Positions 10,434 through 11,798 are shown, counted from the stretch's first letter. The stretch is 64,000 nt of DNA from Rhabdochlamydiaceae bacterium (GCA_047459655.1 JAJREF010000001.1:264219-328218); one strand, 5' to 3'. A program made the numbers and translations. Notes: generated from the sequence alone by a model not told the origin.

Positions 10434-11798
10434 ATGAATTCCATAGGTAGCAGCCCTTCTTCCTCTGGGCCTCCTAATGAGACTCCAAAGCCCTCACAGG
10501 ATCAGCAAGGGCTCTTTTCAAGAATAGGTCAGGTTGTTCGAAATGTATTCAATCGAACTACAGCCCCCAGTACTAGAAATATTGATGCTGCACTTCATAC
10601 CTCCCAAGACTCAGAAGCTGAAGCCTCTGCTGGTAGGAACTCCCCTACACCAAGTACAAGCGCTTCAAGCCCTCCCAGCAGCAGACCATCGAGTCCTGCT
10701 CCTTTAACCGCAGATAGTGATGCTTCTTTAAAGGCTGCTGCTATGCAAGCAACTGAGAAAAAAAGCTAGAAAAGATGCAGAAACTATCTACGATCAACGA
10801 CATTGAGATGGAATTTACCATAAAAATGAATGGTAAAGTAGTCGTTATAAGCCCAGATATACTTGAGCAACTGAGCCCTATTCTTACAGAATTAGCAAAA
10901 ACCCCAGAAGGAAAAGAAAAATTATCAAAAGGATTTGAACTGGTCATTGACTTAGATAAGGTAGGTAGTATACAGATTTATCAAAACGGAAGTGAAATTC
11001 TAACGGACACATGTAAAACCTTTTTTACAACACACCCAGATTTATTAAAACATATAGACAACCTTCTAACTGCTATTAAAATTGCTAAGTTTCTTAACCA
11101 ACCGGGAAGTGGAAAAAAAACTCAGCCTTCTAAAACAACATTGAGCGTAGCTGCTGCTCCCGCTGATCCTTATATTGTAAAGGTTCCACCTAATGGGGAC
11201 TGCCTTTTAGAAGCGGCCCTATACCATATTACAAAAAAAGCAGAACATGAAGCTCTAACAGCCCAACAAATCAGAAGAGAAATGATAGATAAAATAAATA
11301 ACAAAAGAAGCTTAAGTGATAGAGATAAACGTCTGATCCTTCAAGACATCTTGGACGCTAGAATATTTGCAGTGGAAAAGAATATTCAAACACAAGAGCC
11401 CCACTCTTATCTTTTTTCAGAAAATGCAGAAGGCTTAGATTTTCTATGCGCAGATGAGAATATCACACTAAATCGCACAACAGAGCAATGGAATACCTTG
11501 CTTGATGCATACGCAAAATACATTTCACACAACCTTGACGGAACAGCAACACGCCCTTCTCTCGGAGGATATGCTGAAGCATATCTTAACCAAAAATATT
11601 TTCAAGGAAAATCTTTGCTTGTAGTAACAAAAGAGAGTCAAGGTAATACTTTCACGGGTAACCAACAACATACTATCAATGACAGCACTTTTCCGCAAAA
11701 ATATTCCCGTTATCCTATATGATGGATCCGGTCATTACGATGCTATTGATAGTTCAACAAAAGAGTTTTGGGATAAATACAAAAGTCATCAAACCTAA
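10434..11798 (+). CDS. OTU-like cysteine protease candidate (putative deubiquitinase effector) with a Ser/Pro-rich N-terminus; frame broken twice
   Basis: ORF 10434..10769 is low-complexity and S/P-rich. ORF 10775..11722 has the Cys box VPPNGDCLLEAALYHI. The shifted tail to 11798 reads ILYDGSGHYDAIDS (His box). One extra base in the A7 run 10758-10764 would fuse ORFs 1 and 2. The A5 run 11697-11701 separates the His box. Confidence 0.6.

Follow-up and report, generated by a model that had tools for sequence, protein, structure and literature searches.

Effectors of the OTU deubiquitinase type are known from Chlamydiae as well as from other intracellular bacteria, as exemplified by ChlaOTU, SnOTU, LotA-D, wMelOTU, and RickOTU (PMC13720258, PMC10643670). 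In this work we analyzed a gene located on the plus strand of a 64,000-nucleotide stretch of DNA of an uncultured Rhabdochlamydiaceae (Parachlamydiales) bacterium (GCA_047459655.1 JAJREF010000001.1:264219-328218; hereinafter the window, from whose first letter positions are counted unless otherwise indicated), which is interrupted by two frame breaks and which an initial annotation had described as a candidate secreted OTU-family deubiquitinase-like effector. On the whole, the analyses reported below make it reasonably likely that this gene, probably intact in the organism, encodes a divergent protein of the OTU-fold deubiquitinase type that would be delivered to the host cell. The window protein is a new, very divergent OTU in a phylum where OTU effectors are already established, and its comparison with the systems described so far can be summarized as follows.

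According to Furtado et al. 2013 (as cited in PMC13720258), ChlaOTU of Chlamydia pneumoniae and C. caviae is an early effector of the type III system, and its OTU domain is C-terminal. It resembles the window protein in belonging to the same phylum, in its overall layout, and in the presumed removal of host ubiquitin. Indeed, ChlaOTU consists of a non-catalytic N-terminal and central part, which is followed by the OTU-type domain at the C-terminus. As regards sequence, both the intact orthologue of the window protein (P0002) and the profile of its middle domain match only one genus (g1, that of the window) among 401 genomes of the phylum. SnOTU of Simkania negevensis is a membrane-anchored, M1-specific OTU deubiquitinase, which is active with a Leu two residues after the catalytic His (position His+2) (PMC10643670). 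It shares with the proteins analyzed in this work the provenance from a chlamydia-like bacterium, the (here predicted) OTU fold, the existence of a membrane-anchored form, as in the short paralogues described below, and a non-canonical His+2 residue; however, SnOTU belongs to the otubain subfamily and its transmembrane segment follows the catalytic domain, whereas in the present family the anchor is N-terminal and bilobed and the window gene encodes a soluble form.

The survey of bacterial OTUs by Schubert et al. 2020, according to its citation in PMC13720258, includes wMelOTU (Wolbachia, PDB 6w9r), RickOTU, BurkOTU, and EschOTU. Like the window protein, these are divergent OTUs of intracellular bacteria. 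The first of them is the most confident solved structural neighbor of the window family by Foldseek probability (0.99-1.00), but the identity over the structural alignment is 16-20%, and the wMelOTU chains have 161-163 residues in total, versus a spacing of 163-182 residues between Cys and His in our family. The LotA-D proteins of Legionella are likewise OTU-fold effectors of an intracellular bacterium of amoebae; nevertheless, no sequence link to them was found, and the structural match to 7bu0 ("OTU deubiquitinase in complex with Ub-PA") is weak, with a probability of 0.41-0.47. In members of the Lot class, the stretch that separates Cys from His is reported to be extended and helical (work attributed to Shin et al. 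2020).

OTU domains recognized by the Pfam profile PF02338 (gathering threshold 23.3 bits) are present in 44 of the 129 genomes of the chlamydial family that were searched. The genome of the window itself harbors such a canonical OTU (G000:C5:245706-246257; L016 1216-2076), a protein of 286 residues that scores 25.6 bits, above the threshold, and that combines the motifs SDGNCLFHAFG ... VDGNHYNSA with a hydrophobic N-terminal segment (membrane-anchored). The Pfam-positive proteins of the chlamydial family show the same fold and motifs as the window family, and many of them carry long helical inserts and N-terminal hydrophobic anchors; their scores reach the Pfam threshold or come close to it, whereas the window family forms a separate cluster that HMMER does not link to them. 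Thus, nothing is changed in principle, OTU effectors being established in Chlamydiae and OTU domains being common in this chlamydial family. What is particular to the window family is its position outside the curated profiles, the pairing of a soluble with a membrane-anchored form, a private middle domain, and a fixed place between glmS and a TamB-like gene.

Organization of the Gene

The gene extends from an ATG at 10434 to a TAA at 11796-11798, as read directly from the sequence, and these limits are those that had been assigned to it (10434-11798, plus strand). The AT-rich leader with an AAGGAG site that the initial annotation had mentioned is also present: the GC content over 10250-10474 is 31-33%, versus 41% genome-wide, and the AAGGAG Shine-Dalgarno sequence lies at 10422-10427, six bases 5' of the ATG. 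The leader embeds a promoter-like TTGATT-17-TAAAAT sequence at 10377-10405; promoter-like sites upstream of the gene are not above chance (5 found, 4.5 expected by shuffle), and no terminator-like site was found. Downstream of the leader, three collinear open pieces follow each other, which we read as one gene of about 450 codons. The features of the locus, all on the plus strand, are the following:

10265-10433, plus strand: AT-rich intergenic leader of 169 bp (direct reading)
10434-10769, plus strand: piece A, frame 1, 111 residues, Ser/Pro-rich low-complexity N-terminus with a conserved motif of about 30 residues inside it
10757-11722, plus strand: piece B, open in frame 3, containing PPNGDCLLEAALYHI and ending at the frame-3 stop 11720-11722
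10757-11077, plus strand: start of piece B, middle domain of about 105 residues, present only in the long paralogues of the genus
11135-11722, plus strand: remainder of piece B, OTU-like catalytic domain as far as the second break in frame, with the Cys box PPNGDCLLEAAL
11628-11798, plus strand: piece C, open in frame 1, predicted C-terminal strands of the OTU-like domain, containing LYDGSGHYDAIDS
10758-10764, plus strand: A7 run, in or beside which the first frame break (frame 1 to frame 3) is placed, the family alignment being continuous across it
About 11650-11700, plus strand: zone of the second frame break (frame 3 to frame 1), with the short runs T4 (11689-11692) and A5 (11697-11701)

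Both boxes that had suggested a cysteine protease of this type are present: the predicted catalytic Cys is encoded by codon 11201-11203, in the Cys box PPNGDCLLEAAL of piece B, and the His by codon 11733-11735, in the His box LYDGSGHYDAID of piece C, with an Asp at His+2 (GHYDAID). In all the searches described below, the separate pieces A, B, and C, or natural intact relatives, were used as queries.

Assignment to the OTU Superfamily

The OTU fold is a papain-like fold of clan CA, in which the catalytic Cys opens a helix that is packed on a C-terminal sheet bearing the His, and the consensus of the OTU Cys box is D-G-N-C-L-F. The comparison of profiles and a predicted structure suggest that the C-terminal region of about 200 residues is, very probably, a very divergent OTU-fold cysteine protease. 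An alignment of the catalytic domain from 10 members of the family was compared by hhalign with 27 OTU domains that Pfam recognizes in genomes of this chlamydial family, and probabilities of 96.3% (E 1.9e-9) and 97.6% (E 1.2e-11) were obtained in the local and global mode, respectively. The Cys box of the family (GDCLL) was placed on that of the OTUs (GNCLF); in the extended local (low-mact) and in the global alignments, the YA..L / LLIV block was placed on the Ei.Ala / I.I block of the OTUs, and the His box on the His box. The score of the real pair was 64.4, versus at most 14.9 in 20 column shuffles and 12.6 for the reversed control. Once the Cys box had been removed from both alignments, a score of 28.2 was retained (E 9e-4 local and 1.7e-4 global), with His still on His.

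The domain of the orthologue P0002 was modelled with AlphaFold2, and the model has a predicted local distance difference test (pLDDT) of 87.1 and a predicted template modelling score (pTM) of 0.84. In this model helix 23-35 starts with the Cys, and the His lies just before the C-terminal strand 196-199. A Foldseek search of the model against the PDB returned OTU deubiquitinases as all of its top 46 matches, which include ceOTUB1 (E 2.5e-3), OTUD1 (target-normalised TM-score 0.55), OTUD3, OTUD5, nairovirus vOTUs, and A20; in the library of predicted viral structures (BFVD) the best match was a Pandoravirus OTU protein, with E 3.6e-5. The assignment to the OTU family made in the initial annotation is, therefore, supported by hhalign (96-98%), by the fold search, and by the viral match; a profile match, in which Cys falls on Cys and His on His, and a structural match both exist.

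The spacing between Cys and His is 163-182 residues in the family and accommodates extra helices. The idea that this long spacing represents a new OTU architecture was considered and rejected, since in Pfam-positive OTUs from this chlamydial family the corresponding distance ranges over 113-188 residues.

Distribution and Evolution of the Family

A word-seeded search of 5.8 billion proteins with the window gene retrieved only its own fragment and P0002, an intact orthologue of 482 residues that derives from two Logan assemblies. The three pieces align to P0002 in order, piece A with 28% identity over 120 columns (P0002 residues 8-127), piece B with 50.5% over 293 columns, and piece C with 68% over 28 columns (residues 454-481); the pieces are thus more than chance open frames, because all of them align in order to one intact protein. 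On its 17-kb contig (L003), P0002 is encoded between an intact glmS (613 residues) and an intact TamB/AsmA-like gene (1152 residues), and the window, L003, and a further locus (L012) share the order glmS, OTU-like gene, TamB-like gene. Another locus (L013) begins at the OTU-like gene and maintains only the TamB-like neighbor. In two more genomes of the genus of the window, an intact long form is located before the TamB-like gene: Parachlamydiales bacterium RH-23may17-1290 (G358), where the contig includes the end of glmS upstream, and the uncultured bacterium SRP292972_co3_114 (G096), whose contig begins at the long form, the upstream side being off the contig.

When the 401 genomes of the phylum were searched with P0002, matches were found in the genus of the window (g1) only. 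Each of the three genomes of this genus encodes two forms, a long one that is soluble and a short one with a membrane anchor. The long form has 444-473 residues in the two relatives and about 450, broken, in the genome of the window; in the short form (290-338 residues) a bilobed, hydrophobic, Inc-like N-terminus precedes the same catalytic domain. In the genome of the window the short form is intact, with 290 residues, on the minus strand of G000:C1 at about 48.3-49.2 kb (L002 1357-2229), and exhibits the motifs GDGDCLLHAAL ... EHYQYIDSS.

When 1.84 billion cluster representatives were searched exhaustively with the HMMER profile of the family, 8 of them were retrieved at E < 1e-30, in addition to three marginal matches (E 9e-5 to 5e-4), one of which, P0012, is a repeat protein with GDGDCLF motifs; no bridge from the family to canonical OTUs or to other families was found among these representatives. 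Word-seeded protein searches, whether with a single sequence or with the family profile, likewise returned the family itself only. The 8 representatives, the short form of the window's genome, and the long form of G096 (the last two read from their loci) make up the 10 intact members used here. The Cys and the His are invariant in 10/10 of them, the former in the motif (D/N)G(D/N)C(L/M)L and the latter in HYxx(I/V)DS. Other invariant residues are G-D-C-L-L..A-L around the Cys, an R, a D, a P, Y..Y, Y-A...L, and H-Y...D-S.

The OTU-like gene evolves far faster than its syntenic neighbors. Indeed, it is 51% identical to its relative at the protein level, versus 81-97% for the neighbors, and in more distant genomes its identity falls to 27-32%, where glmS retains 93% and the TamB-like gene 53-71%. 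Divergence is not evenly distributed along the protein. The middle domain of about 105 residues, with the motif INGxxMEFTxKxNGK...GFxxxIxLxD...YQNGxEIL (window 10757-11077; L003 6421-6810), is the best-conserved part, 66-68% identical between the window and P0002, versus about 37-50% for the catalytic domain when compared with the nearest orthologue. Its profile gave significant E-values in genus g1 only among the 401 genomes, and no relatives were found beyond the genus, the five further matches (E 9e-4 to 9e-3 per genome) being at chance level across 401 genomes. No Pfam or NCBIfam profile matched the middle domain, nor did any fold-library entry among the matches listed. In the model of the full-length P0002 the pLDDT of this domain is 56-70, and that of residues 12-159 is below 50. 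As for the N-terminus, which had been described initially as a disordered Ser/Pro-rich segment, the composition of piece A (22% Ser, 12% Pro) agrees with that description; the disorder is however not uniform, in that residues ~26-56 constitute a conserved motif (GLFSRIGQVVRNVF..APSTRNIDAAL) common to all long members.

Frame Breaks and Assembly

The initial annotation had proposed two breaks in homopolymers, to be repaired before the protein is read. The first can be placed at or near the A7 run, in agreement with that proposal; for the second a homopolymer is plausible, the zone holding only the short T4 and A5 runs. Both frames are open over 11628-11719, and in the family alignment piece B reaches ...VVTKESQGNT, while piece C starts with ...KNIPVILYDG.

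The genes around the locus exhibit the same kind of damage. The adjoining glmS shares 90% of its DNA and 95% of its protein sequence with that of L003, yet four one-base indels were counted over its 1.84 kb; two of these compensate each other and leave 13 residues garbled. A methyltransferase, a 4HBT thioesterase, and the TamB-like gene are likewise split in the genome of the window. The housekeeping loci bearing indels with respect to an intact relative are:

Window 8420-10264: glmS
Window 12806-13534: TamB-like gene
G000:C1:271243-272519: a further indel-bearing housekeeping locus of the same genome

A second record of the locus exists (L047, on a metagenome contig of 1.34 Mb from JGI). It shows 0 mismatches to the window over 6.9 kb and differs from it by two one-base indels, at window positions 9570 and 13400, one of which coincides exactly with a glmS indel. 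Since the two records differ by one-base indels, one of them within glmS, the indels at this locus depend on the assembly. In the OTU-like gene the density of breaks (two in 1.37 kb) equals the local background rate. An essential gene held at 95% identity does not build up frameshifts naturally. Because the adjoining, essential glmS carries four one-base indels and the two assemblies differ by indels, it is likely that the two frame breaks are assembly errors and that the gene is intact in the organism; the premise that the gene may be repaired was thus probably right, the breaks resembling those of an erroneous assembly rather than those of a dead gene. Programmed frameshifting was considered as well and rejected, breaks of the same kind being found throughout the neighboring housekeeping genes.

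This finding concerns the whole genome (1.61 Mb in 5 contigs, 81.6% complete, 5.8% contamination), whose low completeness, for an assembly of 5 contigs, fits genes split by indel errors. Its many split genes can be regarded as assembly noise, and both its apparent pseudogenes and its completeness of 82%, probably artefacts of the assembly, should be read accordingly.

Possible Function and Alternative Explanations

If the preferred interpretation is correct, the protein would be exported into the eukaryotic host cell, probably through the type III system, and there its Cys/His pair would hydrolyse the (iso)peptide bond by which ubiquitin, or a ubiquitin-like modifier, is attached through its C-terminus; the inclusion, or proteins of the bacterium or of the host, would in this way lose their host ubiquitin marks. 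Targeting or substrate binding might be supplied by the middle domain, and the short, Inc-like-anchored paralogue might have this same function at the inclusion membrane. The structure of the gene, the family, the synteny, the assignment to the OTU fold, the alignment of the catalytic residues, and the indel noise of the assembly are shown by the present analyses, whereas we infer that the protein is an active enzyme, that it acts on ubiquitin, that it is secreted, and what its middle domain does. Such a protein would have to leave the bacterium, because ubiquitin-type substrates exist only in the host. A secreted effector is also suggested by the long form, which by inspection has no recognisable signal peptide or membrane segment, by its low-complexity N-terminus, by the Inc-like paralogue, by the type III export gate encoded in the genome (FHIPEP, 732 bits), by the fast evolution of the gene, and by the eukaryote-only nature of the substrate. 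The restriction to one genus, together with a divergence well above that of the neighbors, is, as far as sequence comparison goes, the pattern of a gene acting at the host interface.

Different observations weigh against this interpretation. The structure was modelled on an orthologue that is 51% identical, from 7 sequences, and not on the protein of the window; the matches to PDB folds, though consistent, are weak, with E-values no better than 2.5e-3, TM-scores of 0.45-0.56, and a high root mean square deviation; the His+2 residue is variable in the family (D, Q, or T; Asp in the window copy), although SnOTU is active with a Leu at that position (PMC10643670); the same two breaks are present in the OTU-like gene of both the window and L047; and no Pfam or NCBIfam profile reaches its threshold for the window pieces or for the orthologue. 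In particular, the HMMER check against PF02338 that had been recommended from the outset gave no match to the window pieces or to P0002, and sub-threshold matches in 5/7 family members (best E 2.7e-4 in the protein scan, at most 21.1 bits in the genome scan). The scans of the pieces, of the orthologue, and of the other members against Pfam and NCBIfam otherwise returned noise only (DEK_C, Rad50, and YraN, E above 0.002), and a sequence search of the PDB with P0002 gave nothing up to E 10. The family is therefore filed at the level of fold or superfamily and not as a member of the curated PF02338. The lack of a Pfam match for pieces and orthologue, the empty PDB search, and the modest Foldseek E-values might even be taken to mean that the resemblance of the Cys and His boxes is fortuitous and that the domain does not have the OTU fold. 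We consider this very improbable, since the profile-profile score is far above those of the shuffled and reversed controls and partly persists without the Cys box, the 46 top PDB matches are exclusively OTUs, the viral library gave a match at E 3.6e-5, and five members match PF02338 on their own.

The breaks shared by the window and the JGI contig are what a real pseudogene would exhibit. In that case both frameshifts would exist in the organism, this copy of a fast-evolving effector gene would be decaying, and its function would be carried by the short paralogue and by the canonical OTU. The gene is indeed the fastest-evolving one in its neighborhood, and the two other OTU-type genes are intact in the genome of the window. 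However, a common set of reads probably underlies the two records, and their shared breaks are for this reason not independent evidence; moreover, breaks are as dense in the essential, 95%-conserved glmS and in other neighbors, the two assemblies differ by one-base indels, one inside glmS, and the pieces are otherwise open, align across the whole family, and keep the catalytic residues. A pseudogene appears therefore unlikely. A different possibility concerns the substrate: the protein might have the OTU fold of a cysteine protease and yet not be directed to host ubiquitin, being instead a peptidase or transferase that works inside the bacterium or its envelope, or an enzyme directed to another modifier or bond, which may be, e.g., a protist ubiquitin-like protein or ester-linked ubiquitin. 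The fixed place of the gene beside a TamB-like envelope gene, in 4/4 genomes, could mean a functional link, and a domain too divergent for the Pfam threshold would fit this idea. Yet, its structural neighbors are all deubiquitinases or deISGylases, and the paralogue has an Inc-like bilobed anchor. Anchors of this kind are typical of inclusion-membrane proteins. An envelope role is also at odds with a long form that, by inspection, lacks a signal peptide and membrane segments, and the neighboring genes are set off from the OTU-like gene by leaders of their own, of 169 and 75 bp. Lastly, the eukaryote-type OTUs of obligate intracellular bacteria have so far been host-directed deubiquitinases (PMC13720258), and we regard an action on something other than host ubiquitin as rather unlikely.

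Returning to a host-directed deubiquitinase, it is tempting to go one step further and to imagine a private two-member deubiquitinase system, with one member soluble and the other at the inclusion membrane; the middle domain of the soluble member, better conserved than its catalytic domain, would be a new module for the recognition of host targets or ubiquitin chains and would confer an unusual specificity, which may be, e.g., for a particular linkage, for a protist ubiquitin-like modifier, or for non-lysine ubiquitination; this we regard as speculative and decidedly unlikely. If active, the family would enlarge the set of deubiquitinases of environmental chlamydiae by a very divergent OTU subfamily that the curated profiles fail to recognize. 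For probing host targets, it would then also offer a soluble and an anchored protein that naturally share one catalytic domain, plus an accessory domain.

Neighboring Genes

In L003 the TamB-like gene is followed by an AbiEi/AbiEii toxin-antitoxin-type pair (11100-12258), and tblastn found no counterpart of either protein in the genome of the window. In each of the four genomes examined, the TamB/AsmA-like gene itself (window 11874-15347) is the immediate downstream neighbor of the OTU-like gene, and it is fairly fast-evolving, with an identity of 53-87%, versus 93-95% for glmS.

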